Shown one piece after another: positions 3,185 through 61,345 of a stretch of DNA of 64,000 bases (its first letter is position 1; each line of letters begins with the position of its first letter). A program made the translations under genes and the position numbers. The notes beneath the pieces were generated by a model, which did no database searches, was not told where the DNA came from, and was given only the letters and a program-made list of their open reading frames with translations. Source of the DNA: Pelagomonas calceolata (lineage: Eukaryota); the NCBI GenBank assembly GCA_918797485.1, contig CAKKNE010000003.1, positions 4,712,001 through 4,776,000 on the forward strand, read 5' to 3'.

Positions 3185-3607
3185 GGCGGGAGGTGGACCC
3201 CCTTGTCCTCCCGGCGAGTAGACCGGCGGGGACACAATAAAACTTTACCTCGACTCAGCCGAGCTACTCGCGGCGGGTGGTCGTCGTCGTCGTCGTAGTT
3301 TAGACTTGTAGCTATCGCGGGGCGGCCCCCGGAGCCCGGCCCGGGATTGGCCCAGGCCACCGCCGCAAAGTCCGCCGCACCGCGACCGGGACTCGAAGGA
3401 GGAAGCTTACCGTGACGCCCGCTAACTGGTGCCGACTACTTTCTCGTAGATAGACGGAGGACGCAGAGGCCACATCTCGCCGCCAGGCGGTCTTCGCCCC
3501 CGCCCGGCCAGGCCGCCGCCGCGCCGCGCCCTCAGGCACCTCTCAGGCACCCCAAGGGCGACAATTCCACAGCGTCTTCGGCCGAACGTCACCACAACAG
3601 AGATTAA

Positions 3608-5007
3608 TTACGACGGCTTCTTGACGGACCGTCCGAGCCTCGGCGGGTAGAACGGCCGCATCATGAAGATGAGCGAGCCGCGCAGCGGGCGGAACACGTC
3701 CGGCGCCGCGGCGGCCGCGCGCGCGTCCGTCAGGTACGCCTGGTACGGGAGGAAGGAGTAGCCGAGCAGCGCGAACTTTGTCGCGCACCAGCCGCGCGCC
3801 GCCGCCGCCGCCGCGAGGCCCGCCTCCGCGGCCCGCCGCAGGGGCCGCCGCCGCCGCCGCGCGACCACCGCCGACGCGTTGCGCTTCGCCATCGACGACC
3901 GCGCGAGCCACTGGTCGGCGGCCGACGCGTTCGCGGCCGACGCGTTCGCCGCGGCCAACGCAGGCCCGCGCGCCAACGCGCGCGCCGCGCGCGCCAGCGC
4001 GCGTTCGGCGACGCGCTCGGCGAAGTCGTACGCGTAGCCGAGGCCCGGCGCGTACATGAACCACGGCCGCAGCCGCACCGGGCTCCTGAACTCCCCGGGC
4101 ACGTCGACGGCGCGCACCGCCACGGTTCTCGAAAAAGAGACGCCGACGCGCCGCACGCCGCCCCGGGGGCCCGTCGGCCACGACGTCCGCGGTACCGCGG
4201 TGGCGTTCGTCGCGTTTTGGGGACGACCCGCGGCGCGGACCGCGCGGCAGCCGCGCGCGAGCACGTCGACGGGGTAGCTCACCGAGAGCACGAACGCGAC
4301 GGCGCAGAGGTCGCTTCGCCGGGGCGGATAGATGATGGCCAGCGCCGTGGCCATGGGCAGGTAGTGCGACCGGCGCTCCCAGAACCCAAAGTTCGGCGTC
4401 AGCGGCAGCTGCACCACGAGGCCCATCTGCCCGCCCGCGTCGACCGTGTGCGCGCAGCCGAGGCCGAAGCCGCGAAACGCGAAGTCTCGCCGCAGCGCCC
4501 GGAGCGGCGCCGCCGGGGCGCGCGAACGGACGGCCTTTGGCTCCGCGCGGGGTTCCGCCGCGGGCGCCGTCCCCCGGTCGGCGCCCCGGCGCCGCATGAC
4601 GCGCAGCCAGCGCCGCCGCCGGAACGGCCCGCCCTCGGCATCGTACGGGCCCGCGCGCGCCGCGGCGTACTCCCAGCCGTCGACGCCGCGGCTCCCGTCG
4701 GAGATCCAGTCGCTCGCCCAGCGCCAGCCCCGGGGCGCCGTCGCGCGGCGCTCGGCGTCGACGTCGTCGCCGCGCGCGGTCGCGTAGCCCACCAGCTCGT
4801 AGGCGCCTGTGTGCAGACCAGCCGCGCGATCAGGCGCCGCGGCTTATCTTAATTGTTTGCGCACTGGTGGGCGCGCGTGCCCTCCGTCCGCCGTTCGACC
4901 TCGAAGACCTCGACGAGTTGCTGCTGCGCCGCCGCCGCCGCTGCCTCGGGCGCCGCCGCCGCCCCGAGGAAGACGCACCAAAGCAGGCATAATATCCGCG
5001 GTGGCAT
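3608..5007 (-). CDS. Signal-peptide protein with a DysF/peroxin (Pex24p)-like domain; exons 5007-4875 and 4806-3608 (443 aa)
   Basis: Spliced N-terminus MPPRILCLLWCVFLGAAAA...VEVFEVERR; PRGWRWASDW...DGWEYA...RRRRWLR matches the DysF pattern. Confidence 0.65.
4807..4874 (-). mobile_element. Introner-type intron (GC-AG)
   Basis: TSD GCGCCCAC/GCGCCTAC (7/8); ends CAGTGCGCAAACAA...TGGTCTGCACACAG; removal restores the frame. Confidence 0.75.
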
Positions 5008-7251: not shown

Positions 7252-8931
7252 ATGAAGGCCAAGAAGGCCGCCCAGGTGCTGGGCGTAAATGAGGGCGACG
7301 ACGAGGCGACGATCACGGCGGCCTTCCGCACGCGCGCCGCGCAGTGGCACCCCGACCGGAACGAAGGAAACCGAGACGAGGCGACGCGCCGCTTCGAGGA
7401 GATCAACCGCGCGTTTCGCGCGCTGAACCAGAACGGGAACACAGCGGGGGAGGCGATGGACCTGAGCGAGATGCTCCTGTTCTTCCAGTTCATGATGGGC
7501 GGCGCGTCGCAGCCGACCGAGGACGCGGCGGCGCTGAGCGTGTCCGAACTAAAGAAGCGCCTCGAGGAGCGGGGCGTGGACTACGCGGGCTGCGTGGAGA
7601 AGTCCGACCTGGTGGAATTGTTGGAGCGGGAGACGGCCGAGGACCAGCGGCGCGTCGCGAAGGCCCGGCGCGCGGCGCGGAAGAAGGCCCAGCAGCGCCG
7701 GAAGAAGGCCCGGGAGAAGGCCGAGCGGAACTCGAGCGAGGAGCAGGACGCGGCGCTCGTGCGGGTCGCGGACGCGGTGTCGAGCGGCGACGCGGCGCTG
7801 GCCCGGAGCGCGCTGGACGAGGCCGAACGTGCTCACCTGGCGCCGGGCGACAAGTACGCGCGGCTCTTCGAGCACGCGCGCGAGCTCGTGCGCCGCGCCG
7901 ACGAGGACGAGGCGAGGGCGCGGGAGGCGGCCGCGAGCGAGAAGGCGTCCCGCGAGAAGCTCGAGGCGAAGAAGGAGCGGCGCGAGGCCCGCCGCAGGGC
8001 CGAGGAGCGGGCCGAGGCCGAGGCGCGGCGGAAGAAGGAGCTCCGGGAGGCCGCGCGCAAGGAGAAGAAGCAGAAGCGGCGCGAGGCGCGCGCCGCGGCG
8101 GCGCCGCCGGCGCCGGCGCCGGCGCCGCGCCCGGCCGGCGGCGCGCCGCCGCGCGCCGACGCCGCGCCGCCGCCCCGCGCGGAGCAGGCGCCGCCGCGGC
8201 CCGTCGACCTGGAGGAGCTCGAGGCGGAGCAGCTGCGGCGCGCCCTGGAGGCGTCCGCCGCCGAGGCCGAGGCCGAGGCCGAGCGCGCGAAGCAGGCGAA
8301 GCGCGAGGCCGAGCGCCGCGAGCACGAGGAGCGGCGCGCGCGCGAGCGCGCGCTGCAGCGCGAGTGGAACGCGACGCAGCGCCAGGCGCACGCGCGGCAG
8401 GAGGTCGAGCGCGCGGACACGGCGCGGCGCGAGCGCGAGCTCCAGCGCGCGTCGGCGACGGCCGCGGCCGTCGCGCTGAGCGGCCTGGACCTGGGTTTCG
8501 GGCCGCCCGGCTCCGACTTCGACGACGCCGAGCCGCGGCGGCCGCCGCCGCGGGGGGGCGACTTCCCGGGACTGGGCGAGCGGCCGGCGCCGCCGCCGCC
8601 GGCCTTCGCGCCGCCGCCGCGCCAGAACTTCTACGGCGCGGCCGGCTCGCTGGCGCCGCCGCCGCACGCGGCGCCCGCGTACGGATTTCAGGAGCCGCCG
8701 GCCGCGCCCGCGCGGCAGTGGAACGACTCGTCGCTGCGGGCGGCCCAGGGCCTCGAGACGCGCGCGCCGGAGTTCGTGCCCGGCGCCTACGGCGGCGGCT
8801 TCGCCGCCGGCGGCTACGGGGGCTTCGGCCTCGCCAACGGGGCGCCCGCGGACGAAGACGCGTACCCCGAGGGCGGCATGGGCGGCATCATCGAGGCGTC
8901 GCTCGACAGTCTGGTCGGCGGCGACGCGTAG
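7252..8931 (+). CDS. DnaJ (J-domain) protein with SAP/ARMET_C-like motif, coiled coil, UIM-like and PAM2-like motifs
   Basis: QVLGV...AAQWHPDRN...FEEINRAF (HPD); LSVSELKKRLEERGVDYAGCVEKSDLV; EELEAEQLRRALEAS; LETRAPEFVPG. Confidence 0.85.
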   Translation: MKAKKAAQVLGVNEGDDEATITAAFRTRAAQWHPDRNEGNRDEATRRFEEINRAFRALNQNGNTAGEAMDLSEMLLFFQFMMGGASQPTEDAAALSVSELKKRLEERGVDYAGCVEKSDLVELLERETAEDQRRVAKARRAARKKAQQRRKKAREKAERNSSEEQDAALVRVADAVSSGDAALARSALDEAERAHLAPGDKYARLFEHARELVRRADEDEARAREAAASEKASREKLEAKKERREARRRAEERAEAEARRKKELREAARKEKKQKRREARAAAAPPAPAPAPRPAGGAPPRADAAPPPRAEQAPPRPVDLEELEAEQLRRALEASAAEAEAEAERAKQAKREAERREHEERRARERALQREWNATQRQAHARQEVERADTARRERELQRASATAAAVALSGLDLGFGPPGSDFDDAEPRRPPPRGGDFPGLGERPAPPPPAFAPPPRQNFYGAAGSLAPPPHAAPAYGFQEPPAAPARQWNDSSLRAAQGLETRAPEFVPGAYGGGFAAGGYGGFGLANGAPADEDAYPEGGMGGIIEASLDSLVGGDA

Positions 8932-21596: not shown

Positions 21597-21942
21597 GTAT
21601 TTACGGATATTCATTTCAAGAAGAAATCTGTTGCACATGAAGCCTATCACTTGTCACATGGATTTTGCCAGTGAATAGTAGACTGAGTTGATACATTCTC
21701 TAGTAGAAAGGCATCTAATGGACGCTCGCGCCCAGGGGGAGTAGAGAGAGAAACCTACTAGCCCTTCCTACCTTAGATATGTATCTCCCACTCTCTAATA
21801 TTTGAGTCTATACATCGAGTGTCAAAAGCACTACGGCGTAACAACAGTTCACTATAAAACACTCTCGTAGTCAGGTTGGCCCAGCCCTCGGCTGGTGAGC
21901 TAGGACCCTGCTACTTTACATAACGCTGCGACATACTCTTGC
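21597..21942. mobile_element. One arm of the long-TIR MITE/DNA transposon family (copy A)
   Basis: Near-identical in reverse complement to 29048-29388; shares the terminus ...TAACGCTGCGACATACTCTTGC with 46940-47155. Confidence 0.85.
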
Positions 21943-22065
21943 TAGCTGGTCCATATTATTATCATAATAAGCAGATTACTGGTATTAATACCGCCGTATA
22001 CCTACGGTACCTCTAGCTTGGCAGCAGGAAGGACACTACCGCAGTACGAGCGCGTAGTACATGAG

Positions 22066-28964: not shown

Positions 28965-29047
28965 CGTGCACCCCGCGGCTCACCTACCATACCTACCTTA
29001 GTCTAAGTACGGTACTGCGGTAGGCCTACAACCTGGTACCAGTACTT

Positions 29048-29550
29048 GCAAGAGTATGTCGCAGCGTTATGTAAGTAGCAGGGTCCTAGCTAACCAGCTT
29101 AGAGCTGATAGGCCTGACTGCGAGAGTGTTTTATAGTGAACTGTTGTTACACCGTAGTGCTTTTGACACTCGATGTATAGACTCAAATATTAGAGAGTAG
29201 GAGATACATATCTAGGGTAGGAAGGGCTAGTAGGTTTCTCTCTCTACTCCCCCTGGGCGCGAGCGTCCACTAGATGCGCTTCCACTATAGGATGTATCAA
29301 CTCAGTCTATTCACAGGCAAAGTCCATGTGACAAGTGATAGGCTTCATAAGCAACAGACTTCTTCTCGAAATGAATATCCGTAAATACTGTTGTTAACCA
29401 GCTTAGAGCTGATAGGCCTGACTGCGAGAGTGTTTTATAGTGAACTGTTGTTACACCGTAGTGCTTTTGACACTCGATGTATAGACTCAAATATTAGAGA
29501 GTAGGAGATACATATCTAGGGTAGGAAGGGCTAGTAGGTTTCTCTCTCTA
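29048..29550. mobile_element. Arm of the long-TIR MITE family (copy B) with an internal duplication
   Basis: Begins GCAAGAGTATGTCGCAGCGTTATGT; about 29091-29246 is repeated at about 29395-29550. Confidence 0.85.
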
Positions 29551-46218: not shown

Positions 46219-46392
46219 GAGCGCTGATTCTTATTTACGGGCGCACGGCACCGCGCAAGCGCCACACTATTTCTGACGGGGAGGCTGCCCCCCGCGGACT
46301 CCGGGTCGAGAGTCATCGGCCCCGTAGGTTTCGCTTGTACCGGTGCAAGCTGGTACCCGGGCCGTACCGTAGGTACTGGTAGGTTGGTCATA

Positions 46393-47155
46393 GCACGAGT
46401 ATGCCGCAGCGTTATGTAGAGTGATAGGGTTCTAGCTCACCAGCCAGAGGCTGGGCCAAACCAACTACGAGAGTGTTTTATAGTAAATTGCCAGTGATTT
46501 ACACCGTTGCGATAAATAGGGCGAAATAACTGCCAGCACTGGCACTTAGACCCCCCCCTTACCTAACGTGCCTACGAGAAAAGGCCGAATATACGAGATA
46601 TTCCCGCACGATGCGAATATAGCAGCGCAATTGAGCCGTATCGTATACTGGAAGCAGGTGCATCACTTGGGCTGCCCGAGCGCCCGGAAATGCGGGGTAC
46701 TCTGCTTTTCAGCATAAAAAAAGACGCACGTAGCGCCAAGATCCAGCTACAGTCGAATCCCCACCTTCGTACGCACAAAATCTCGCCGGGCGTGCGCAGA
46801 AGCTGCCCTCGGAAGCTGCCAGTGCGCCTTGACAAGTGAGCAGCAAAAAATTACCGCCATCGGTCGGCGTGTGGCTGTACGCTCCATTGTGCCAACGTCG
46901 ACTCGGACCGTGCCAGTGACTAGTATTGCGCTCGACCCCCCTAGATATGTATCTCCCACTCTCTAAATTTGAGTCTATACATCGAGTGTACAATCACTAC
47001 GGTGCAAACACAATTTGCTATAAAACACTCTCGTAGTTAGGTTGGCCCAGCCTTCGGCTGGTGAGCTAGGACCCTGCTACTTTACATAACGCCGCGACAT
47101 ACCTACGGTACCTACCGTAGGTACCGCGTACCGCAGTACGGTACAGTACTCTTGC
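46393..47155. mobile_element. Two-ended long-TIR MITE (copy C), flanked by TA
   Basis: About 95 bp inverted arms 46393-46490 and 47012-47155 (GCAMGAGTATGYCGCRGCGTTATGTA...GAGAGTGTTTTATAG); TA on both sides; 47 bp GGTAC-rich insert in the right arm. Confidence 0.85.
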
Positions 47156-49704: not shown

Positions 49705-52700
49705 TTACACAGGAGGAATAGAACCCATTGCGGGCGCCGCCGAATGCGGGTCGTACGGCGCGAGCGACGCCCACGACGGGCCGGCCCGGAGTCGGACCTC
49801 CGCGGGCACGCCCTCCAGCGCCGTCGCGGCCTCGAGCGCGGACGACACGTCGAGCGCGCAGGTGGCGAGGTCCTGCGTCGGGACCTCGAAGACCAGCTCG
49901 TCGTGGAGCTGGAGCACGAGCCGCGGCCGCCGGCGCGCGTCGTACTTGGCCCCAAAGCTCGCGACCATCGAGGCCATCGCGCGCTTGACGAGGTCGGCGG
50001 CGGAGCCCTGGACGACCGCGTTGAGGGCCTGGCGCTCGGCCTTGCGCCGCCGCTTGGGATCGGTCGAGTGGATGTCCGGGAGCCGGCGCCGCCGGCCCAG
50101 CACCGTCTCCACGAACCCGTGCTCGCGGCACGCCGCGGTCACCGTGGCCCGATACGCGTCTAGGGCGGGGAAGAGCGCCCGGACCCGCTGGACGGCGTCG
50201 ACGGCGGCGCGCGCGTCGACGTCCAGCGCTCGCGCGGCCTTGCGCGTGCTCTGGCCGAACAGCACCGCGTAGACGAGCTGCTTCGCCGCCGCGCGGTCTT
50301 TCACAACCGCGCACCTCTCCACGAGTTCCACGAACGGATCGTCCCCCCGCTCCTCGAAGCACCGTCGCAGCCGCGCGTCGCCCGACAGGTGCGCCGCGAC
50401 GCGGAGCTCGCACTGCTTGAGGTCCGCACTCAGGAACACCGCGCCGCGCCGCGCGATAATCAGCCGGCGCGGCTCGACGCAAATCGCGTGGTCGAACGGC
50501 GAGTAGCGCGCGGCGCGCTCCGTCTCGCGGACGCGGCCGTCTTCGGGCCAGGCGAAGCCCGGCGGGCGGAGGCGCGGCCCGCGGTCCAGCCGGTAGACGC
50601 GGTCCGCGGGGTACGTCAGCTCGCGCCGACGGATCCGCACGACGGCCGCGCGCACGGTCGCCGCGCGCCGCGCGGAGTACGCCCACGTCGCGCCCCGGCG
50701 CGCCGCGTCGCGCCAGTAGTCGGCGATCGAAGCGCCGTCGGCGAGGCGGCGCGCGTCGATCGCCGCGCCGCTCAGTTCGACGAGCGCGCCGCGCCGGAGC
50801 CGCGGCGGGTCGCCCGGCCGCACCGTCGCGTCGACGCAGAGCACCTCAATCCCGGGAAGCGCGTCCTCGGGGTCCTCGTGCAGGCTCGGCCGCGCGAACC
50901 GCGTGATCGCCACGCCCGCCGCGTCGAAGTTCTGGAAGTTGGGGGCCGAGCACACGAGGCGCCCGGTCGCGGTCGGCTCCCGGCCGCGCTTCGTCTCGCG
51001 CGAGAGCGAAAAGCACGCGCGCGCGCAGGTCGTCGACGCCTCGAGCGTGGGGTGCGGCGCGAGCGCGCGCTGCAGGCCCGACAGGCGGGCGAGCAGCGCG
51101 CGGGCGCGGCGGTGCGCGAGCACGACCGTCGCGCGCTCGCCGGCGCGGCCGCCCCGCTGCGCCTGGGCCGCGAGCCCGCGCGCGGCGGCCGTCGAGGCTG
51201 CCTTCGCGGGCACGTCGCACAGCGCGTTCACCTTCCCGTGCGCCCCCAGGTTTTCGATGCCGTGCGCCTCCGCGGCGACGCGGCGGCAGTCGTCGACGAA
51301 CTGCCGCAGGTCGTCGACCCACGCGCGCAGCCGCGGCGCGTCGACGTCCACGCCCGAGTGGTTCATCTCGGCGATCGCCGGAACGCACGCGACGTCCGTC
51401 GCGAGGAGCGCGGCCAGCGCGCGGCCGCACGCGGGCGCCGCGAGCGCGTCGCGGCACGTCCGCGCGTCCCGGGCCAGCGCCGCCGCGCGCGCCACGGCGC
51501 GGTCGCGCCGCCGCGGCGCGTCCTCGCCGTCGCGAGCGGCGTCGGCAGCGTCGGCGGCGTCGTCGGCGGCGGCGGCCGCGCCGCCGCCCGCCCGCGCGGC
51601 GACCGCCTTCGCGGCGGGCACGTCGAAGAGCGGCCTGCCAGCCGGCGTGCCGTTCGAGCGGAGCGCCGTCGCGACGGCGACGGCGTCGCCGCACGCGAGG
51701 GCGTACGCGCCCCCCCGGTCGGGCGCGGCGGCGACGGTCGCCGCCAAAGCGACGCGGCCGCCCGCGAGGCGCTCGCACGCCCGGAGCGCGCGCCGGCCGC
51801 GCGCGTGCCAGGCCCGGCACGCGAGCCGCGCCGCCGCGCCGGCCGCGCGGCCGTCGCGCGCCGCGCCGAGGCGCGGCGCGTACTGGCGGAAGCCCAGCCA
51901 GCCGACGACGCGGCAGACGGCCGCCTCGGGGAGCCGCGCCCAGCCTTGCGCGGTCCCGTCGTTCCTGCGGCGCAGCTCGCGCTCGAACGGCCAGGGCGGC
52001 GGGACCGGTGGCGAAGAATAATACCTCGCCTCGCCGGGCCCGCGCGCGAGGCCGTAGCCGACCAAGACCCTCGAAGTGCGGGGGTCCAGGAACTTGGCCC
52101 ACGCGCGCCGGCGGGTGCCCGACGCCCCCGGCGGCGGCGGCGCCGTATCCAGGGCAACGCCGACGAACGGCGCGTCCGTCGAAGCGAGCGCGGCGCTCTC
52201 CCGCGCGTCGAGCGCGCGCGTCCGCCGCCGCGCGTCCGAGGCCAGCACGCGCGGCGACGCGTCCCTGACTTGTACGCCCGACGACGCCTCGGACCGCCGC
52301 GACCGCGGCGACACGTCTCGCGACGACGCGTACGTCTCGAGCCCGGCCGTGTGCCCGCTCCCGCGCCGCCGCTTGCGCGCGCGCCCGTCGGCGGCGGCGT
52401 CCGCGGCGCCGTCGGAGTCCGCGGCGTCCGCGGTGTCGTCGTCCGAGTCCGAGTCCGAGTCCGACGAGGACGCGTCGAAACTCGGCGCCGCGGAGCCGTC
52501 CGAGTCGTCGGACTCGGCGGCCTCGGCCCGGCGCCGCGGCGCCGCGCGCGCCGGACCGGTCCGCGCCGCGGCGGCGGCGGCCACGACGCCGGCGGCGACG
52601 GCTCCGCGCCGCGCGGCGGCGGCGGCGGCGGCCTCGGCGCCCGTCGTCCTCGTGGCGGACAGCAACGAGACCAGGAACGGCGTCTGCGACCAGGACGCGT

Positions 52701-55173
52701 CGTGGCGGCGGCGCGCAGGTCCGTCGACGGCGTCGACGCCGGCGAGGCGCCACGGCGCCGCGTCCGCGAGCACGCGCTCGACCGCGTCGACGCCGGCGTC
52801 GGCGACGTCCGCGGCCGCGCGGTAGTTCGTGTCCCGCAGCGCGCGCGCGAGCTGGGCGTCGCCGCCGCACGCCTTGCGCAGGCCGCGGAGCCCGGCGCGC
52901 CACGACGCCGGCTTCTTATCGAACGCGCGGAGCGCGCGCCGCAGCGCGCCCGCCCGCTCGTCGAGGCCGTCGGCGACGCAGGTCCAGTTCAGGCGCCGGC
53001 AGAAGCGCGCGACGGCGCCGGCGAAAATGGGCGCCCGCCGCGCGAGCTTTTCCAGCGCCGGCTCGGGAATCTTCGTGCGCCGCGACAGCTCCTCCAGCGA
53101 GACGGGCGCCGCCGTCGCGACCGCCCCGGGCGCCGCCGGCGACAGGAGCGCATCCACTAGCACGCCGAGCCAGAGCCGCCGCGCGACGAAGAGGCGCGTC
53201 GCGCGGCGCGTGGCCCCCCAGCGGCCCCGCCGCACGTCGCGCAATATTTCGACCGCGGTCGGCAGCGGGGCGGCGCGCGCCGCCGCGTGCGCGTCGCGCT
53301 CGAGCTGTTCCAGGTCGAGGCCGAGGTGCGCCGCGGCGGTCTCCGCGTCGCGGCCGCCGTCGTCCACCAGAGCCGCCACAAAGTCCCAGAAGACCTTCGT
53401 GTTGAAGAGGGCCGCGTCGAGGTGGTAGTCGAGGCCGGGCAGCGGCGCGCAGACCGCCGCGCGGACGAGCGCGGCCGCGGCGCTCGACGCCGGCGCGCAC
53501 CGCGCGCGCGTCAGCGCCTCCTCGAGCAGCACCGCCTCCAACGGCCTCACGTCTCCGGCGGCGAGCACCGCGCGGCCCAGCGCCGTCGTGCGCGCGGCCC
53601 CGGCCGCGTCGACGTCGACGCAGCGCGCCGCTTCCAGCGAAGCGAGCGCGTCTCCGCACGCCGCGTCGGCGGCGCGCGGGTCGTCGGCGAGCGCCCGAAA
53701 CAGCGTCGCGCGCGCGACGGCGCGGGGGCCCTCGGCGGCGTCGAACGCGGCGCCGTCGGCCTCGGTCGCGCACACGGCCTCGAGCAGCAGCCGCGCGAGC
53801 GCCTCGGCGGCGTCGGCGGCGCGCGCCAGGCCGGACCGGACGGGCGGCAGCGTCGACCGCGCCGTCGCCTGCGCCAGCAGCCCGCGCGCCCACGCCGCGC
53901 GCCGCCGCGGCGCCACGACGACGGCCTCGCCTCGCCGCGCGCCCGCGGCGCCGCCGCGGCCCGCGCGCCCGAGCATCTGCGCGAGCTGCACGGCGTCCGT
54001 GGGGAACTTGTCCGCGCCGCAGAGCACCACGACCTTGGCCGCGGGCAGGTTCACGCCGGCCGCGAGCGTCTGCGTGCAGCAGACGACGCGCGCGCCGCCG
54101 CCCGCCGCCGCCGCCTCGACGGCGGCCCGCTCCTCGGGCGCGAGCGCGGCGGAGTGGAAGAGCGCGTCGCCGTCCTCGCGCTCGAGCAGCCGCCGGAGCC
54201 GCGCGTCGCCGCGGCGCGGCAGCGCGCGCCGCGCGGCGCGGCGCGCGGCGCGGTCGTGCTCCGCGTTCCTGCGCGGTGCGGCGCAGATCTGCTCGGCGAG
54301 CCGCCCGGTGTCATCGCGGCGCCAGCAGAAGAGGAGGCAGCTCTCGCGCGCCGCCCGCGCCTCCGCGACCGCGCGCCGCGTCGCGTCCGTCGCCGTCGCT
54401 TCGGTGACGAACCGCGGCCGCAGCGCGACGGGCCGGCAGCGCGCGACCGTCGCCCGGCACCCGAGCCACGCCGCGACGGCCTCGACGTTCGAGAGCGTCG
54501 CCGAGAGGCCGACCAGCTGCGTCGCGCCCCCCCGGAGCCGCAGGCGCGTCAGGAGCTTCTCGTACGCGGCGCCGCGGTCCGCGTCGCCGACCAGGTGGAG
54601 CTCGTCGACCGCGACGGCCCGCAGGCGGCCCGTCGACCCGCCCGCGTCGTCCGCCGCGCCGCCGCGCCGCCGCCGCCGCGCGCGCGCGTCCGCCGCCGCG
54701 AGGGCCTGGCGGTCCAGCAGGCCCAGCGCGGCCTCGGGCGTGCAGCATACGATCGCCCTCGCCATCGCGAGCGACGCGCGCGGCGCGTCCGGCCCCTCGC
54801 CGCAGTCGACGACCGCGCAGCGGTCGGCGCGCGCGCACCGCTCGTCGTGGTCGCGCAGCGCCCGGCGCAGCGTCCGGGCCTTCTCGGCGACGAGCGCGAG
54901 GAACGGCAGCACGTACAGCGCCACCCCGCCCTCGCCCCGGAAGGCGCCCCGGAGGAGCGCGACTTCGGCCACGCACGACTTGCCGCCGGCCGTGTCGACG
55001 GTGACGACGGCGTTCGCGCCGGCCGCGACGCCGTCGGGGCCCTCGAGGACGTCGCGTTGCCAGGCTCGGAGCCGGACGATGCCGGTCGCGTCCGAGTAGC
55101 CTCGCGCCACGGCCGGCGGCACCTGGGCCGCGCGCAGGGCGTAGGCGACGGTCCCCGGTTTGGCTGCATCCAT
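49705..55173 (-). CDS. POLQ: DNA polymerase theta-like (SF2 helicase plus family A polymerase), single exon
   Basis: TAGGKS, VDELHLVGD, VGLSATL, TLAAGVNLPA, QMLGRAGR; TATGRL..PNFQN, SADLKQCELRVAAHLSGD, RAAAKQLVYAVLFG, VQGSAADL, LQLHDELVFE. Confidence 0.92.
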   Translation of the reverse strand: MDAAKPGTVAYALRAAQVPPAVARGYSDATGIVRLRAWQRDVLEGPDGVAAGANAVVTVDTAGGKSCVAEVALLRGAFRGEGGVALYVLPFLALVAEKARTLRRALRDHDERCARADRCAVVDCGEGPDAPRASLAMARAIVCCTPEAALGLLDRQALAAADARARRRRRGGAADDAGGSTGRLRAVAVDELHLVGDADRGAAYEKLLTRLRLRGGATQLVGLSATLSNVEAVAAWLGCRATVARCRPVALRPRFVTEATATDATRRAVAEARAARESCLLFCWRRDDTGRLAEQICAAPRRNAEHDRAARRAARRALPRRGDARLRRLLEREDGDALFHSAALAPEERAAVEAAAAGGGARVVCCTQTLAAGVNLPAAKVVVLCGADKFPTDAVQLAQMLGRAGRGGAAGARRGEAVVVAPRRRAAWARGLLAQATARSTLPPVRSGLARAADAAEALARLLLEAVCATEADGAAFDAAEGPRAVARATLFRALADDPRAADAACGDALASLEAARCVDVDAAGAARTTALGRAVLAAGDVRPLEAVLLEEALTRARCAPASSAAAALVRAAVCAPLPGLDYHLDAALFNTKVFWDFVAALVDDGGRDAETAAAHLGLDLEQLERDAHAAARAAPLPTAVEILRDVRRGRWGATRRATRLFVARRLWLGVLVDALLSPAAPGAVATAAPVSLEELSRRTKIPEPALEKLARRAPIFAGAVARFCRRLNWTCVADGLDERAGALRRALRAFDKKPASWRAGLRGLRKACGGDAQLARALRDTNYRAAADVADAGVDAVERVLADAAPWRLAGVDAVDGPARRRHDASWSQTPFLVSLLSATRTTGAEAAAAAAARRGAVAAGVVAAAAAARTGPARAAPRRRAEAAESDDSDGSAAPSFDASSSDSDSDSDDDTADAADSDGAADAAADGRARKRRRGSGHTAGLETYASSRDVSPRSRRSEASSGVQVRDASPRVLASDARRRTRALDARESAALASTDAPFVGVALDTAPPPPGASGTRRRAWAKFLDPRTSRVLVGYGLARGPGEARYYSSPPVPPPWPFERELRRRNDGTAQGWARLPEAAVCRVVGWLGFRQYAPRLGAARDGRAAGAAARLACRAWHARGRRALRACERLAGGRVALAATVAAAPDRGGAYALACGDAVAVATALRSNGTPAGRPLFDVPAAKAVAARAGGGAAAAADDAADAADAARDGEDAPRRRDRAVARAAALARDARTCRDALAAPACGRALAALLATDVACVPAIAEMNHSGVDVDAPRLRAWVDDLRQFVDDCRRVAAEAHGIENLGAHGKVNALCDVPAKAASTAAARGLAAQAQRGGRAGERATVVLAHRRARALLARLSGLQRALAPHPTLEASTTCARACFSLSRETKRGREPTATGRLVCSAPNFQNFDAAGVAITRFARPSLHEDPEDALPGIEVLCVDATVRPGDPPRLRRGALVELSGAAIDARRLADGASIADYWRDAARRGATWAYSARRAATVRAAVVRIRRRELTYPADRVYRLDRGPRLRPPGFAWPEDGRVRETERAARYSPFDHAICVEPRRLIIARRGAVFLSADLKQCELRVAAHLSGDARLRRCFEERGDDPFVELVERCAVVKDRAAAKQLVYAVLFGQSTRKAARALDVDARAAVDAVQRVRALFPALDAYRATVTAACREHGFVETVLGRRRRLPDIHSTDPKRRRKAERQALNAVVQGSAADLVKRAMASMVASFGAKYDARRRPRLVLQLHDELVFEVPTQDLATCALDVSSALEAATALEGVPAEVRLRAGPSWASLAPYDPHSAAPAMGSIPPV

Positions 55174-55357
55174 GTCGGAACTGCGCCGCTTCTCTCGGGC
55201 CCTGACGACGTGTGTCAAACGGATAAAGCTGATGCCTTGGGCCGCCCCGGAGGGTTCACTACGGCCGACTAGTGGGATTTGACAAAGTTGACTTTTTGTT
55301 TGGTTGACTTTATTAGATGTAGAGACTGGTCGTTTGCTGGTATCAGTTAACTGGACG

Positions 55358-56998
55358 ATGGCCGCAAATACGCTGCCCCCGGGCAGGCTGAAGTACCTGG
55401 AGGGCCTCGCGCCGGACCAGGCCACCTTCCAGAAGTACGTCGAGGATGAGGCGCGCTCGCGCGGCTGGGTAAAGCCCACCGAGCTGCTGCCCCGCGCCGC
55501 GCGGTCGCGCCGCGCGCCGCCGCCGTCCCCGGACCCCGCCCCCAAGAAACAGGGGCTGAAGAGGCGCCGCGAGACGTGGGAAAAGCTGCCCTCGTCGTCC
55601 CAGAAGCGCTCGCGCGGCGACGGCGCGGCGCGGCCGCGGGTCCTTCAGACCATAACAAACCGCGCCCCGCAGTCCCTGGACAGCGTCGTCGTCGCCTGCG
55701 ACGACGAGCGCGTCGAGGGCACCGCCATTGCCGTCGTCGGCGACACTGTGCAGGTCCAGCCGTTCGCGCAGGGCTCGGAACCGCTCGTCGTGAAGAAGGA
55801 GGAGACCGCCGTCACGGTGGGCGCGCGCTCGAGGCGCTCGAGGGGCGTCCCTCGCCGCGCGACGGACGCCGTTCTTCGCCCCGAAGGTCGGACCCATCTT
55901 TCGGGCGACTCGCTGTTGCTCAAGGACGGCAGCATGGTCGTCTTCCTGCAGCCCCGTCGTCCTCAAGGATCGAGGTCTTGGGCTCGCAAGATCGACGCGT
56001 TGCCCAAACACATCAACAGGTCGACTGCGTCCACCTGCGATGTCGTCCTCTCGTCGACTTCTAGAGAGGTCTCGGTGACCTCCGTCGTGGGGCCTGTGTG
56101 GGTCGTGTCGCAGGACAAGGCCAGAAGTGGTGCCTACGACGGCCTCGCGCGAGTCTACACCCTCGACCAGTGGTTTGATGGTACGTCGCCGGCGCTGCGA
56201 CCGCTTCCAGAGCGCTGCGTCGCGTCGCTGATCGACGACAGGCCGTCGACGATGAGCGGCTTGTGGGACTTGTTAAACGTGCGCGTCGCCGTTGCTGATG
56301 CCGTCGGCGAGCTCCTCCGCGGGAAAAAGAAGAGCGGTACCGTTACGACGTGTGTTTCGAAGTTGTACTGGGCCTACCTCTCGAAGCTGTCGGGCATGTG
56401 GATCGAGAAGTTCACGGCGAAGCGCGTCGTGGCGCGCGGGCGGCCAGGCGGCGCCGACGTGACGCGCCTCCAGTTCTACCGTTTCGAGCGGTTCTCGCTT
56501 AGCGGCGATGACGTGGTGCGCCTGGAGAGCGAGTTCCGGATCTTGGCGCGGCGACGCGGTCTACGAGTACCCCTAAAAGGCGGCTTCAAGGAGACGAGGG
56601 TGCCGACGACGCTGGACGAGTTCAACAAGCTCGTGCGGGTGACGTGCACTTACAACGTCGACACCGGCGAATTGAAGCTCAACGCCCGCTTCGAGGTCAA
56701 GTCGCCCGCCGAGGCCGGTGCCACGAACGTGACGAATCTGACGGCGCCGTCGCCGTTGCCACCGCCGGAGACGGCCGTCGAGCCCGTCGCGCCCGTCGAA
56801 GACACGCTGTCCGCGACGGTCGTCGCGGAGTTGCAGATGAAACAGTTCGAGCTCGACGGCGTCGTTTACACTATCACGGCGGCGACGGCGGCGTCGTGCG
56901 AGTTTAGGGAGGCCTACCCGGTCGCCGGCGCGGACGTGCCGACGCTCACGCGTCCAACGTCTGAAGTCCATGCACTCGTCGCAGCCTACGAAGAGTAA
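55358..56998 (+). CDS. Transposon-borne partner protein (546 aa) with a BAH-like domain
   Basis: Uninterrupted ORF inside the TIRs; GDSLLL...DVVLSSTSREVSVTSVVGPVWVVS...VYTLDQWFDGTSPALRPL resembles the BAH consensus; basic NLS-like N-terminus. Confidence 0.6.
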   Translation: MAANTLPPGRLKYLEGLAPDQATFQKYVEDEARSRGWVKPTELLPRAARSRRAPPPSPDPAPKKQGLKRRRETWEKLPSSSQKRSRGDGAARPRVLQTITNRAPQSLDSVVVACDDERVEGTAIAVVGDTVQVQPFAQGSEPLVVKKEETAVTVGARSRRSRGVPRRATDAVLRPEGRTHLSGDSLLLKDGSMVVFLQPRRPQGSRSWARKIDALPKHINRSTASTCDVVLSSTSREVSVTSVVGPVWVVSQDKARSGAYDGLARVYTLDQWFDGTSPALRPLPERCVASLIDDRPSTMSGLWDLLNVRVAVADAVGELLRGKKKSGTVTTCVSKLYWAYLSKLSGMWIEKFTAKRVVARGRPGGADVTRLQFYRFERFSLSGDDVVRLESEFRILARRRGLRVPLKGGFKETRVPTTLDEFNKLVRVTCTYNVDTGELKLNARFEVKSPAEAGATNVTNLTAPSPLPPPETAVEPVAPVEDTLSATVVAELQMKQFELDGVVYTITAATAASCEFREAYPVAGADVPTLTRPTSEVHALVAAYEE

Positions 56999-57006
56999 GT
57001 CACAAT

Positions 57007-60000
57007 TTACCAGTCTATCACGCGCTTCTGCTTCCAGCCGATGACCTTGAGCTCGCCGGGCTTGACCAGGCCTGTGAGCCACATCATCCGCCGCTGCATC
57101 CACTTGCCCAGCGCGGCGACGCGCGTCGCCCGCGTCGCCTCGTGGCCGCAGTGGCCGCCGCGCTGCGTCCGCGTGAGGAAGAAGCGCTTGATCAAGTGGT
57201 TCACGCTCTCGAAGCCCTGGTTCGAGTAGCGGTACAAGTTCCGGTACTTTCGCAAATAAGCAGTAATGTGGCCCGAGCCGATCATGAAGTAGTTGAAGTT
57301 CGCAGGGCCTTCGCCGTGGTCGTCAGTAGCCGATGGTAGGTCTCCTGGGCGAGGTCGTCGGCTTTGGCAATCTCGACGTCCGTGAGATCTTCTCGTTTTC
57401 GATATAGCACCATCAATTCCTCGTAGCCGCGGACGAGGTCGAGGACGACCCGCCGCTTGGCGTCGTCCGGGAAGCACGCCTCGATGAGCTCCGTGCCGAC
57501 GTTAGCAAAGATCTTCCGGGCGCGGCCGCAATTCAACGAGATCTTCTCGACGGAATCTTCGTCCTTGGAGAGCGGCGCCGTCCACTTGCCCTCGCGGCCG
57601 TTCGGGCAGCCGAAGCCTTTCGTTCTAATCAATTTCTCCAGCGGCCGCAGCTTCGCCAGGGCCACGCTCTTCTCGTAGATCACAAATAAATTGTTGAGGA
57701 TGAGCCGCAACAGCTTCTCGCGCGTCCGGTTTTCTAAATGCAAGACGCACGGGACCATATGCTCGACCAGGGAGATGAGCGCATCAGAATTTGGCGTGGC
57801 GTGTTCTAATTGCGCTTGAAGTTCGTAATATTGGTCAACCAATTTCAGGCGCGCGTCAGCTTCTCGACGCGCGAACCGAGGTTGCCCGTCACCGCCAGGC
57901 CGAAATCAACAAGACAATCGTTCACGACCAGCGAAAATTGCGTTTTTTGTGCTGGGGTCGCAGTTCGACAGTCGAACTTTGCGTAAAACCCGTTTTGGTT
58001 GGGGTTTTCCAATTCCAAGCAATGCTGACCGCAATAAGCAGCGAAGCGCGCGTGCAAGTGGGCCGAGGTGCCGCCCGCATCGAGCCCAGCCTCCGCGGCG
58101 AGCTCGCGCAGCTGCGCCGCACTTAAAGTCTTGGCCTCGCGCATGTAGCGGTAGGCTGGGGGCAGCTCCCCTCTGAGCTCCGTGAGCGCAGCGGCAGCCG
58201 TAGCGCGCCACTCGTCTACGGCAGCCGGCGTCGACATCTCCGCGTGGTAGCACACTAACCGACCCGCTGCTCTGCAGACGTCGCAAAGGTCGTCAACTAC
58301 CTTGGGCGTCGTCATCTGCCTGTTGGTCTGCGCGCAACAATAACACGGCCGCGCGTTCTCCGACGTCCCAGTCGCGAAGCCCTTCTTCGACACCGTCTGG
58401 AGGTTGGCCATGTCGCCCGAGCAGACGTAATCAACGTGAACGGCGCGGCCCTCTGCCTCTGACTGGTAGACACCATCGGTTTGCGCCGTCGCCGCTGTAC
58501 TGAAGTGATCCGTCACGTCGTCTAAAGCTTCGTACAGGGCATGGCTCTCGTGGCCAACGGCTAACGTAGTAATATGAACCCGATCAGGCGACTGGAAGTC
58601 GGTGATAGGCTTGCCAGTGATCGGGTCGACCGCGCGGCTGTCGTTGACGTGGATCCCTTGCATCGTAAAGTCGTCGCTTTTCGTGATGTTGCTGCCGTCT
58701 TGCGTGCCTCTGATCCTCCGCGGATCCGCGGGACTGCGTCCAGTCTCAAGGAGCCCATACTGCTTTCCGATGACGTCGAGGACCGCGCCCGTCGCAATGC
58801 CGACCGCCTCGTAAGTGCCGTCGCCCGCGGACGTTTCCGTAACCGAAACCTTGTGGCCATCAGCAACTCTCTCGACCAGCTTGGCTGTTTCCTGGAGCGC
58901 GAACTTCGTGGGGAATAACAGCATCACGTGCTTGCCCAACGTCTCCCCGAGCGCAACGAGAGCCGCCCGCTCTCTGGCCCGCATGGCCTCGCTCGCAGCG
59001 TAGTTCCCCGTCATCTCCACGTCCATGGTCTTCAGTAGTTCGGCTGGAGAGAAAATCTCCTGGAGGCGCCGGTACTCCGCGCACGCAAAGTGAGCTCGCA
59101 CGAGGCCAATCTCCCCCCGCCCGCGAGAGTGTTGACACCACGCGTAGTCGGCTAGGAGACGCAGACACTTCTGTTGCTTTCTTTTGAGCGTACCACCACA
59201 AATTCTACTGAGAAAGTCGCCGACGGCGTGGACCACGGGCCACAACGACTCGCCTTCGAAGTCCGAATCCGGCGGCGGCTCCTCCGGTAAATACGCAACA
59301 CGAGAACCCAGCCAGGCGCCTCGAAGCCGTCGAAGGCCATAAAGCTCGAGGTTGAGCTGGCTTTGTTTCTTTTTCAAATCGGCGACTTCAGTTCTCTGCG
59401 CGTCGAGTTGCCGCTGCAACTCGCGCGTGTTTGTCCGGAACCCCTCCTCCAATCGCCGCCGCTCCTCGTCTAGCCGCCGCCGCCGCGTCGCTCACAGTCT
59501 ATTTTCCATAGTTCTTTCTCTTGTGAAAATTTGGCTCTAAGGCGATCAACGTCGCGCCGTCGTGCCGCTCTCTCCGCGGAGAGCGCGTTCGCCTCGCGGT
59601 CCAGAGAGAGAAGCATAAGTCTTGCCGAGTCGGTGGCGCTCCTCGCGAAGACTGCGTCCTGTCTGTCGCGTAGCTCCGCGTGGGCCGCGACGGCCGCGGC
59701 GCGCGCGGCTTCCGCGCGGTCGCACGCCGCGAGCGCGTCTTCGGCGCGCTGCTCTAGGGCCATTAAATCTCGTCGTGTCACGGGCCGTGGTACTGGCGCG
59801 ACTTCGTCGAGGTCGACCACGTCTTCGTCCGGCACGAGCAGCTCAGCATCATCAACCGGATCCACGCGCGTGACCTTCTCGCCGGGCGTCGTGTACATCC
59901 TAGGCCGCGCGGACGTCGGGCGCTTCTCGCCGGACCGCGCCGTCGTCTTCGACGGCTTGCGCGGCGCTCGGGGCGGCTGCTTCCTCTTGCACTGGAACTT

Positions 60001-60324
60001 CTCCTCTGGTCGCGGGAACGGCGGCTCGACGCCATCGGGGTACTCCTCGAGCGCGCGCGCGCGGTTCTGCACGGCTGGCAAGAAGTAGATGCACCGCGGC
60101 TCCTTATCAATTTCGTACGACTTCCGCCAGTACCGACCCTCGGCATCAAAGGTCACCCTTGTCCTCGCGGTGGGACCGAGCGCCGCGTTGAGCGCGGCGC
60201 GCGTCGCCACGCCGTCCATCTCCATGAGGAGCTCGTCGTCGCTGAGGAAGACGTCCCCCTCCGGCATTGGCAGGGCGTCGAAGATGTGCTGATCGTCCGC
60301 CGCGGGCTTCCACACCCGCGGCAT
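57007..60324 (-). pseudogene. RAG1/Transib-like DDE transposase with three frameshifts (about 59485, 57850, 57320)
   Basis: RIRGTQDGS (D1, 58697-58699), CSGDMANLQ (D2, 58412-58414), PCYCC, PCVLHLE, LNCGRARKIF, NYF-MIGSGHI, YSNQGFESVNHLIKRFF (E, 57208-57210), collinear with RAG1 core motifs. Confidence 0.8.
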
Positions 60325-61345
60325 CGTGGCAGCACCAACGTTCTCGGGCTGTGAACAAGTTATTAAAACTTGATTAGAGTATGCTGCGCAGCAGCTGCGT
60401 GTGGGCTGCCTCCCCCAATCAAGTTTTAATGCGATGCAGCTGGACCGAGATCGCAGCGCTTTTAGCAGCGCCGCTGGGCGCTCAGCTACCCCCTGGTTTT
60501 CCTACAAGTTACTGCAATACATAATGTAACTAGGGGGGCTTGGTATCCTACCAGTAGGCCGTAGTGTCACGAGGGCTAGAAGGTGCGGGTAAGATAAGGG
60601 GGGGGGGTACAATGAAAGAGCGGTACAGTCGTAATCTCCCGACTGATAGATATCTCTCAATCTCGCGCCGTCCGGGCCCCGGGCGGTACACTTCCAGGCA
60701 TCCGTCGTCCATCTGGGGTTGGGTTTTTTTGCCACCTGGGGGGGCTGTGGGGGGGGGTTAGCAGGGGGGTGGGGGGGGTTCACCCTTCATTACTCGCCGG
60801 CTCGAGGGTGGGGGGTGGGGGGGGTCGACGGCTGCCGGAGGTGACTACCGTCGCGCGCGCCGGGCGCGGATTCCGCGAGGAACTCCTAGACGCGACATGA
60901 AGTTGTTTGAGTATCGTTCCGTTGGCTGATGGGCCAGAGAGATCAATGGGACACTTACTGGGGGGCGAAAAAAATAATTTTTTTAATTCGCGATATTGAC
61001 GGTCCCACCAGTGCTTGTCGGCGGCCGTCACGCGGTTCGCCGGCCGCCGATTGCCCTAGTGCCCACATGACGCCGTCGAGGCAAAAGATCACTGGCAGAC
61101 TAGCGTCGTATAGAGTAGTCTAGCGTGGTAGAGTTGAGGTTTGGGCTAGCGGCATGTAAGACACTAGCGAGCACAAGCAGCGCAATCATATCAGGGCTTT
61201 TGAGCTAAAAGAGCTTCAGGCCGGAAATCTAATCACGTGGTAGTTGATCAACAATTGCTGCCGCTCCGCCGGCTAAGGCGTGATGCTCGTGTCGCGGTGA
61301 TTTGTACAACGCCATAGTCAAGCCCAAAGCGAACGCATCATCGCC

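Follow-up and report, generated by a model that had tools for sequence, protein, structure and literature searches.

The RAG-like transposons (RAGL, or ProtoRAG) carry two convergent genes between CAC-type ends (PMC7204232), and a 5-bp GC-rich target duplication is described for RAG and Transib (PMC10629977, PMC7204232). Transib elements have no RAG2-like second protein (PMC10629977). A two-gene RAG1-like transposon, AanRAGL, is known from a pelagophyte, Aureococcus anophagefferens (Tao et al. 2022, PMC9435367); it has CACACCCAAACCT bipartite, asymmetric terminal inverted repeats (TIRs), its RAG2L gene upstream in the same direction, 5-bp duplications of the target site (TSDs) and a C-terminal CxxC..GH..C tail (PMC9435367). 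Transib has been grouped with EnSpm/CACTA, Mirage, Chapaev, Plavaka, ESTA and Lanisha in a CMCT clade, whose lineages have TSDs of 2–5 bp and C(2)C and H(3-4)H motifs that lie after the second D and before the E (Kojima 2025, PMC12730594). Except for the main article of Tao et al., the papers cited here and below are cited from excerpts. We analysed a window of 64,000 nucleotides from the alga Pelagomonas calceolata (assembly GCA_918797485.1, contig CAKKNE010000003.1, positions 4,712,001 to 4,776,000 of the forward strand). The window holds a 5.3-kb transposon at 55257–60566, in which 22-bp TIRs enclose two convergent genes: one for a DDE transposase and one for a second protein, here called the partner. 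The element is neither a RAGL nor a canonical Transib and probably represents an undescribed two-gene CMCT lineage.

The element, its transposase and its target sites

The main parts of the element are:

55257..55278, + strand: left TIR, starting CACTACGGCC; 19 of 22 bases match the right TIR, and high-depth contigs start exactly at 55257 (short-read runs X2, X5 and X1)
55358..56998, + strand: partner gene, an open reading frame (ORF) with homologues P0001–P0016, colinear with the partner profile of the family and covered by polyA RNA with 3' ends at 57010–57013
57007..60327, − strand: DDE transposase of about 1106 aa with a predicted RAG1/Transib fold, identified from ORFs, a family hidden Markov model (HMM) and BLASTP; the fold comes from a relative, P0028
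60545..60566, − strand: right TIR, identified from the TIR match; high-depth contigs stop exactly at 60566

The first-pass annotation had claimed imperfect 22-bp TIRs beginning CACTACG and convergent genes whose stop codons, at 56998 and 57007, lie 8 bp apart. The contig ends bear out the former and the ORFs the latter, and the first 10 bases of the two TIRs match perfectly. Eight of the 20 public short-read runs with part or all of the stretch were examined. In both X2 and X1 a single contig of 5316 nt corresponds exactly to 55257–60566, at a depth of 208 versus 13–17 in the flanking contigs (X2) and of 43.7 versus 5–6.4 (X1); runs X5 and X11 show a similar excess. Because this contig runs exactly from end to end, at high depth, in two runs, the ends of the element are not due to chance. 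The element is present in roughly ten or more near-identical copies, a rough figure because contig depth is not copy number. Compared with the window, the 5316-nt contig shows 9 substitutions and 18 gaps.

The window itself contains one copy only. Two NCBI gene models that follow each other, CAH0372394 for the partner and CAH0372395 for the transposase, mark another two-gene copy, and named homologues of both genes are P. calceolata proteins, on two chromosome-size contigs. The protein P0017 stops at the window's own break and may be the product of the window copy itself. None of the contigs listed confirms the right junction of the window. A cluster of variants at 60147–60199 occurs in 2–19% of RNA reads and not in the main DNA contigs, and in X5 the contig depth is higher at 60200–60566, which suggests a divergent subfamily or a deletion derivative with a common right end. 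Other CACTACGG sites in the window were set aside because each falls within either an unrelated repeat or coding sequence.

The transposase gene runs from an ATG at 60327 to its stop at 57007 in four reading-frame pieces. With X at the breaks the protein has 1106 aa, close to the ~1100 aa stitched together at first pass, and all eight motifs quoted then are present in the same order. In this read-through numbering we find D543 (TQDGS), D638 (SGDMA), CxxC at 661, PCVLH at 859, an H-x5-H pair and E1040 (SNQGFE). The quoted NYF motif was right for the window, which has NFNYF; the consensus of loose-end reads has TNYFH instead. The breaks lie near 59480, at 57852 and at 57290–57320, and the three frameshifts are absent from short reads and contigs. 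The change at 57852 is found in raw RNA reads (44/47 and 34/35), and the break near 59480 is not present in the X11 and X9 contigs. As the short reads lack the window's frameshifts, we infer that the transposase ORF of the family consensus is probably intact, not all contig gaps having been displayed.

Relatives were sought by scanning metagenomes with transposase motifs only, using patterns that did not fit the Pelagomonas motif variants. The scan gave 187 relatives among 274 pattern matches, and the best 80 loci were kept; they include 11 near-identical pairs, so that counts of loci overstate the number of independent elements. Across 42 family members D441, D537, E919, one CxxC and three histidines are all invariant (42/42), with H-x5-H spacing in the His pair. 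The window transposase, read through as X, scores 384.9 bits on the HMM of these 42 members and matches every one of them by BLASTP, at ~22–31% identity among the matches listed; P0028 is 24% identical to it over 786 aa. A phmmer search of 1.84 billion representatives returned 21 matches aligned across the whole transposase core, and a search for full-length relatives (960–2740 aa) of the window transposase piece found none. In a FastTree phylogeny of family members only, without an outgroup and with composition warnings, the window protein and P0019 lie on a long branch.

The metagenomic relatives come from aquatic contigs of 37–50% GC, and two cluster members carry the label 'MAG bacterium'. 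No relative was found in GTDB genomes (two scans), viral contigs (four scans) or plasmids, and the flanks of two relatives carry motifs that we take to be copia-type. Eukaryotic hosts are therefore the better guess.

At E ≤ 0.05, Pfam detected no transposase family and no RAG1 match in the 42 members. Nor did it find any transposase family, CACTA and Plavaka included, in the window pieces, and a PDB sequence search with the transposase piece and two profiles gave no transposase match. The structure of P0028, a full-length relative, was modelled from 18 sequences with a mean predicted local distance difference test (pLDDT) score of 61, much of the core reaching 80–90. With this model Foldseek gave 46 matches at E ≤ 0.001, all above the first non-RAG match; those listed were all RAG1, HzTransib or BbRAGL, with Hermes next (E 0.008). 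Re-alignment of Foldseek's top 1000 chains (VIA) gave a Z of 20.0 for RAG1 (root-mean-square deviation 4.5, 467 residues aligned), 19.4 for HzTransib (4.1, 405 aligned) and 18.7 for BbRAGL (4.9, 461 aligned), the lower scorers being the P element (11.1), ISCth4 (8.1) and Hermes (7.5). The transposase is predicted to have a RAG1/Transib-type fold which, with the invariant D, D and E, agrees with the fold and DDE triad proposed at first pass. It counts against this assignment that the modelled protein is a relative with a mean pLDDT of 61, not the window protein. To our knowledge, solved structures within the CMCT clade are limited to RAG1, RAG1L and Transib; a fold match to these therefore assigns the family to the clade at large and not to any one lineage in it, and the caveat that a CMC affinity was open, raised at first pass, stands.

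Two further features of the transposase were noted. Residues 454–479 of the piece at 57848–59491 (− strand) match a SAP domain weakly (E 0.015), and this region is an insertion in the zinc-binding region of Pelagomonas-type transposases (window, P0019 and P0021). A second Cys/His cluster, at 576–589 in the numbering of locus L009, has C576 and C587 invariant and H589 in 40/42 members; it is a possible second zinc site.

The termini of the relatives are CAATACCAGCC, CACTACCAGCC or CACTACGGGCC, with the pattern CA[AC]TAC: most end CAATAC and others CACTAC. The window element ends CAC...GTG, as set by the depth boundaries. Six relatives with both ends measure 4891–5199 bp; relatives' TIRs are simple and 11–22 bp long, and by eye the left and right subterminal motifs differ. 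We found no target-site duplication of 2–12 bp in any of seven elements (six relatives and the window). L009 and the window have one shared base at their flanks, T in the window. The base beside the TIR is A or T in 22/26 relative ends (p 0.003 versus 57% A+T), and so not GC-rich; it was one of ten positions tested, the other nine being not significant. In the X1 flanks, T precedes the element at 35, TT at 24, and T follows it at 29, of a depth of 43.7. These flanks argue against a GC-rich duplication of 5 bp.

At first pass, TSD length had been expected to tell Transib/RAG (5 bp) from CMC elements (2–4 bp). Neither length was seen in the seven elements, chimeric contigs being possible. Several points speak against reading too much into the missing duplication: the six metagenome contigs may join different copies, the window assembly is error-prone, and no empty-site joint is among those listed in the 8 runs. 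With these reservations, a length of 0, 1 or 2 bp would fit. We rejected a 4-bp TCAC duplication that overlaps the left TIR: contigs start at 55257, and accepting it would take the CAC away from the left end. On the ctenophore scaffold of PbaTransib_0868 (PMC9435367 supplement), CAATACCAGCCTAG occurs at about base 7552, the same words as in the TIR of locus L014; this is either chance or the end of a related element.

The convergent partner gene

The partner is a fixed companion of the transposase. Among the 70 loci in which a catalytic-Glu ORF could be recognised, 51 have a convergent ORF after the transposase stop, and these 51 ORFs form one BLASTP-connected family. A profile built from 41 partners (371–492 aa) detected the partner at 63/80 loci; where the contig leaves at least 1000 bp downstream it was found at 52/52, with at least 600 bp at 55/58 and with at least 300 bp at 60/66. 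Median identity among the 45 full-length partner ORFs is 18%. Partners diverge faster than transposases, with a median identity of 18% versus 26%. Partner and transposase distances are correlated (Spearman 0.69 over 26 loci, reached by 0/2000 permutations; 0.59 for pairs below 50% transposase identity).

No RAG2 feature was found in these partners. Pfam gave no RAG2, kelch or PHD match in the 41 partners (one beta-propeller model reached E 0.09 in 1/41), a PHD pattern occurs in 0/41, and a PDB search with the partner profile gave no RAG2 match. The two-component family with a non-RAG2 partner, proposed at first pass, is supported by a second gene that is both conserved and convergent. Two loci carry additional ORFs. 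At L066, and only there, transposase and partner are separated by a 406-codon tandem-repeat ORF (3397–4614); L012 (1–2692) has two extra − strand ORFs (502 and 418 codons) upstream of the transposase, which match neither profile.

The Pelagomonas partner has a family consensus (P0003-like) of 547 aa. Its basic low-complexity N-terminus is followed by a BAH-like region at ~170–290, a middle portion of helical and beta structure and, at the C-terminus, a small beta domain. The window ORF carries compensated frameshifts at 55820–55986, which put ~55 codons out of frame; the consistent form is that of P0001 and P0003 from the database. In a few RNA reads (5 and 14), 136 nt of the partner's N-terminal region are skipped at 55492–55629, with ends that are not GT-AG. 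All named close homologues of the window partner are near-identical copies. Its homology to the family partners is likely: it scores 6.5 bits on the family HMM, a value reached by 0/1000 shuffles (best 2.4), and in a global hhalign alignment its residues 136–547 are colinear with the family to the last residue (E 8e-5). Less favourably, an earlier HMM gave it 5.6 when one of 300 shuffles reached 5.3, the hhalign probability is only 7% (local) or 33% (global), and BLASTP found no link between the window partner and the family partners.

Is the partner BAH-like, as the first-pass annotation suggested? Searched against the PDB, the whole-partner profile gave a single match, to Rsc1 441–552 (E 0.6), which we take to be the Rsc1 BAH domain. 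The N-terminal profile matched six sequences at E ≤ 10. Two of these, SHL 10–130 (PDB 5ZNP; E 0.15) and Rsc1 441–554 (PDB 23CP; E 0.59), are aligned weakly but over nearly the whole domain, along the partner's first ~140 positions; the other ~270 residues match nothing. SHL has an N-terminal BAH domain with the cage residues Y41, W63 and Y65 (PMC6013494). We think it rather likely that the partner is BAH-like.

Several results pull the other way. The BAH matches are below significance; the four remaining N-terminal matches are unrelated proteins over short stretches, and among them carbonic anhydrase (E 0.028) beats SHL; Pfam BAH matches 0/41 family partners and 0/3 Pelagomonas partners; and SHL Y41, W63 and Y65 correspond, on this weak alignment, to a gap, L and L in the partner profile. 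The aromatic cage of SHL thus appears not to be kept in the partner, and a canonical methyl-lysine reader is unlikely. BAH identity, as claimed at first pass, is only weakly supported, by suggestive profile matches; 'chromatin reader' would hold by inference only, as the cage residues are not conserved. A single-sequence model of the Pelagomonas partner was unusable (pLDDT 37), and neither the window partner nor that of L009 had a usable match in the ESM Atlas.

Both genes are transcribed. In raw polyA reads from one sample (X21 and X24; strand was inferred from the + strand partner and carrier gene), partner RNA reaches depths of 1736 and 935, respectively, with 3' ends at 57010–57013, versus at most 95 and 30 for transposase sense reads. 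Further features lie over or beside the transposase gene:

58029..58990, + strand: abundant polyA RNA antisense to the catalytic region of the transposase, depth to 1700 (X21) and 957 (X24), with a sharp 5' edge at 58029–58037; longest ATG ORF 114 aa, probably non-coding
59680..60516, + strand: second antisense polyA RNA, over the 5' part of the transposase, depth to 661 and 401, ending at 60516; longest ATG ORF 67 aa
60362..60430, no strand: imperfect inverted repeat of 29 bp around an 11-nt loop, lying just upstream of the ATG of the transposase

Our preferred reading, towards which we lean with some reserve, is a two-gene transposon whose CMCT-fold transposase is joined by a convergent, dedicated BAH-like helper that works with it on chromatin. 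By analogy with RAG and Transib, the transposase would act as a dimer on the CA[AC]TAC ends, binding them, cutting through a nick and a hairpin and pasting the element elsewhere; judging from the flanks, insertion would occur between A/T bases with little or no duplication (0–2 bp). The partner's task would be to bind either the transposase or the complex that it forms with DNA, and it might anchor this complex on nucleosomes by a BAH-like surface distinct from the methyl-lysine cage; such a role would be analogous to that of RAG2 and not homologous. The antisense RNAs over the transposase would likely hold its level low.

The partner could instead be an anti-silencing or transcriptional regulator that acts on the DNA or chromatin of the element and never enters the transposase complex, an alternative that we consider doubtful yet worth taking seriously. 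VANC of Mutator-like elements and TnpA of CACTA elements are such regulators. Partner RNA ~20-fold or more above transposase sense RNA, in one sample, weighs against a helper in that it fits a regulator equally, and the strong antisense RNAs over the transposase and the faster divergence of the partners (18% vs 26% median identity) would suit a regulator too. Transposons with anti-silencing genes are known, TET/JBP and SET being examples (PMC12730594). TET/JBP cargo, however, is frequently transferred between lineages (PMC12730594), whereas the partner keeps a fixed convergent layout and a similar length and diverges with its transposase; this favours a helper working with the transposase but is compatible with a regulator.

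Relation to described transposons

The element shares with CMCT transposons its CA...TG termini and a DDE triad in a predicted RAG1-like RNase H-type fold. The CxxC is invariant, and the His pair, also invariant, is spaced H-x5-H where H(3-4)H is described for the clade. No TSD of 2–5 bp was seen; the TA duplication of ESTA was not seen in 7/7 elements. The excerpts of the CMCT survey do not mention a convergent BAH-like accessory gene (PMC12730594), and our literature search, which did not extend to Repbase Reports, found no description of this pairing. The family may already be catalogued, perhaps under the name Lanisha or among the EnSpm/Transib-type entries that Repbase has for diatoms or other protists: its CA...TG ends, CxxC and paired His are CMCT hallmarks, and Lanisha is cited to Repbase Reports 2020 (PMC12730594). 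Given the H-x5-H spacing, the missing 2–5 bp TSD in 7/7 elements, the lack of any Pfam transposase family in 42 members and the silence of the literature searched, we regard this as improbable.

With Transib the element shares the predicted fold (HzTransib, PDB 6PQX, Z 19.4), and by eye the motif order resembles that of CthTransib_0091 (DG, GD, LH..LR, LTG, H..H, QQG.E; Tao et al. 2022, supplement). Transib has 5-bp TSDs and one gene; here there is a conserved second gene and no 5-bp TSD, and because of these two differences the family does not belong to Transib.

With RAGL/ProtoRAG and RAG1-RAG2 (BbeRAGL, protostome RAGL, PDB 6B40) the element shares the order of TIR, transposase, convergent second gene and TIR, as well as CAC-type termini, a predicted RAG1-type core fold (Z 18.7–20.0) and a DDE triad with a CxxC/His zinc site. 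The last His lies 20 residues before the catalytic Glu, as in RAG1. It differs in having no kelch or PHD second gene and no 5-bp TSD, in an identity of ~12%, in its H-x5-H pair, and in that most relatives end CAATAC rather than CAC. The CxxC..GH..C tail (CTT1) occurs in 0/42 family members. With no RAG2L, no CTT1 (42/42) and no 5-bp TSD, the family falls outside RAGL, and the specific Transib/ProtoRAG membership raised at first pass is not upheld. The distinction then drawn from the kelch-RAG2L element of Aureococcus is, in contrast, well founded: none of the TIRs, tandem genes, 5-bp TSDs or C-terminal tail of AanRAGL is seen in the Pelagomonas element, and no Pelagomonas or diatom entry was found in the excerpts of the Tao et al. 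2022 supplement (PMC9435367).

Descent from a true RAGL, with RAG2L swapped for another gene, is very improbable. It would account for the convergent layout and the CAC-type ends, both of them RAGL traits (PMC7204232); RAG1 also gives the best fold match, and a pelagophyte RAGL exists (PMC9435367). But RAG1, HzTransib and BbRAGL are tied within ~1 Z at 11–13% identity to the P0028 model, neither Pfam RAG1 (42 members), a CTT1-like motif (42/42 tails) nor a 5-bp TSD (7/7) was found, and by eye the motifs are as near to the basal CthTransib (Tao et al. 2022 supplement) as to RAG1. That the partner was captured from the host and is a mere passenger in the window copy is barely credible: the link of the window partner to other partners is weak, but its named close homologues are all near-identical copies, the high-depth contig of the element includes it, its alignment with the family partner stays colinear to the last residue, and a partner-profile search of low sensitivity gave 20 matches, none named as a host gene.

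A broader interpretation, which we offer as a speculation more likely wrong than right, is that a widespread protist lineage with the RAG1 fold, independently of RAG2, fixed a BAH-derived cofactor tail-to-tail and integrates with a 0–1 bp stagger versus the 5 bp of RAG. In work on how V(D)J recombination arose, it is still asked how a single-gene Transib-like enzyme gained RAG2 and came to depend on it. If the interpretation is true, the BAH-derived cofactor would be a second solution to a two-subunit, chromatin-guided RAG-type enzyme. The element offers a natural comparison, with the same enzyme fold and layout and an unrelated partner, in an apparently intact, transcribed, multi-copy form in a culturable alga. 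With dozens of divergent intact relatives, one can test whether the recruitment of partners is a repeated feature of this enzyme clade and what function the partner has. If the missing duplication is real, the RAG1 fold can change its integration geometry. Because it is invisible to Pfam, the family is probably unannotated in algal genomes.

Neighbouring genes and repeats

One neighbouring gene lies close to the left end:

49705–55173, − strand: DNA polymerase theta-like gene with DEAD helicase, POLQ helical and Pol A domains

The element sits 83 bp upstream of the ATG of this helicase/polymerase gene, and a mitochondrial carrier gene lies ~780 bp beyond the element. A + strand RNA at ~55060–55290 spans the left junction. 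To the right of the element, 60837–61298 belongs to a second repeat, with contig depths of 820–930 (X2) and 320–440 (X5). A dispersed, AT-richer repeat family with internal CACTACGG occupies 21597–21950, 29038–29550, 46391–46513 and 46939–47102, its members being 84–97% alike; it includes a 156-bp exact duplicate (29091–29246 / 29395–29550) and an inverted pair (46399–46490 / 47011–47102).

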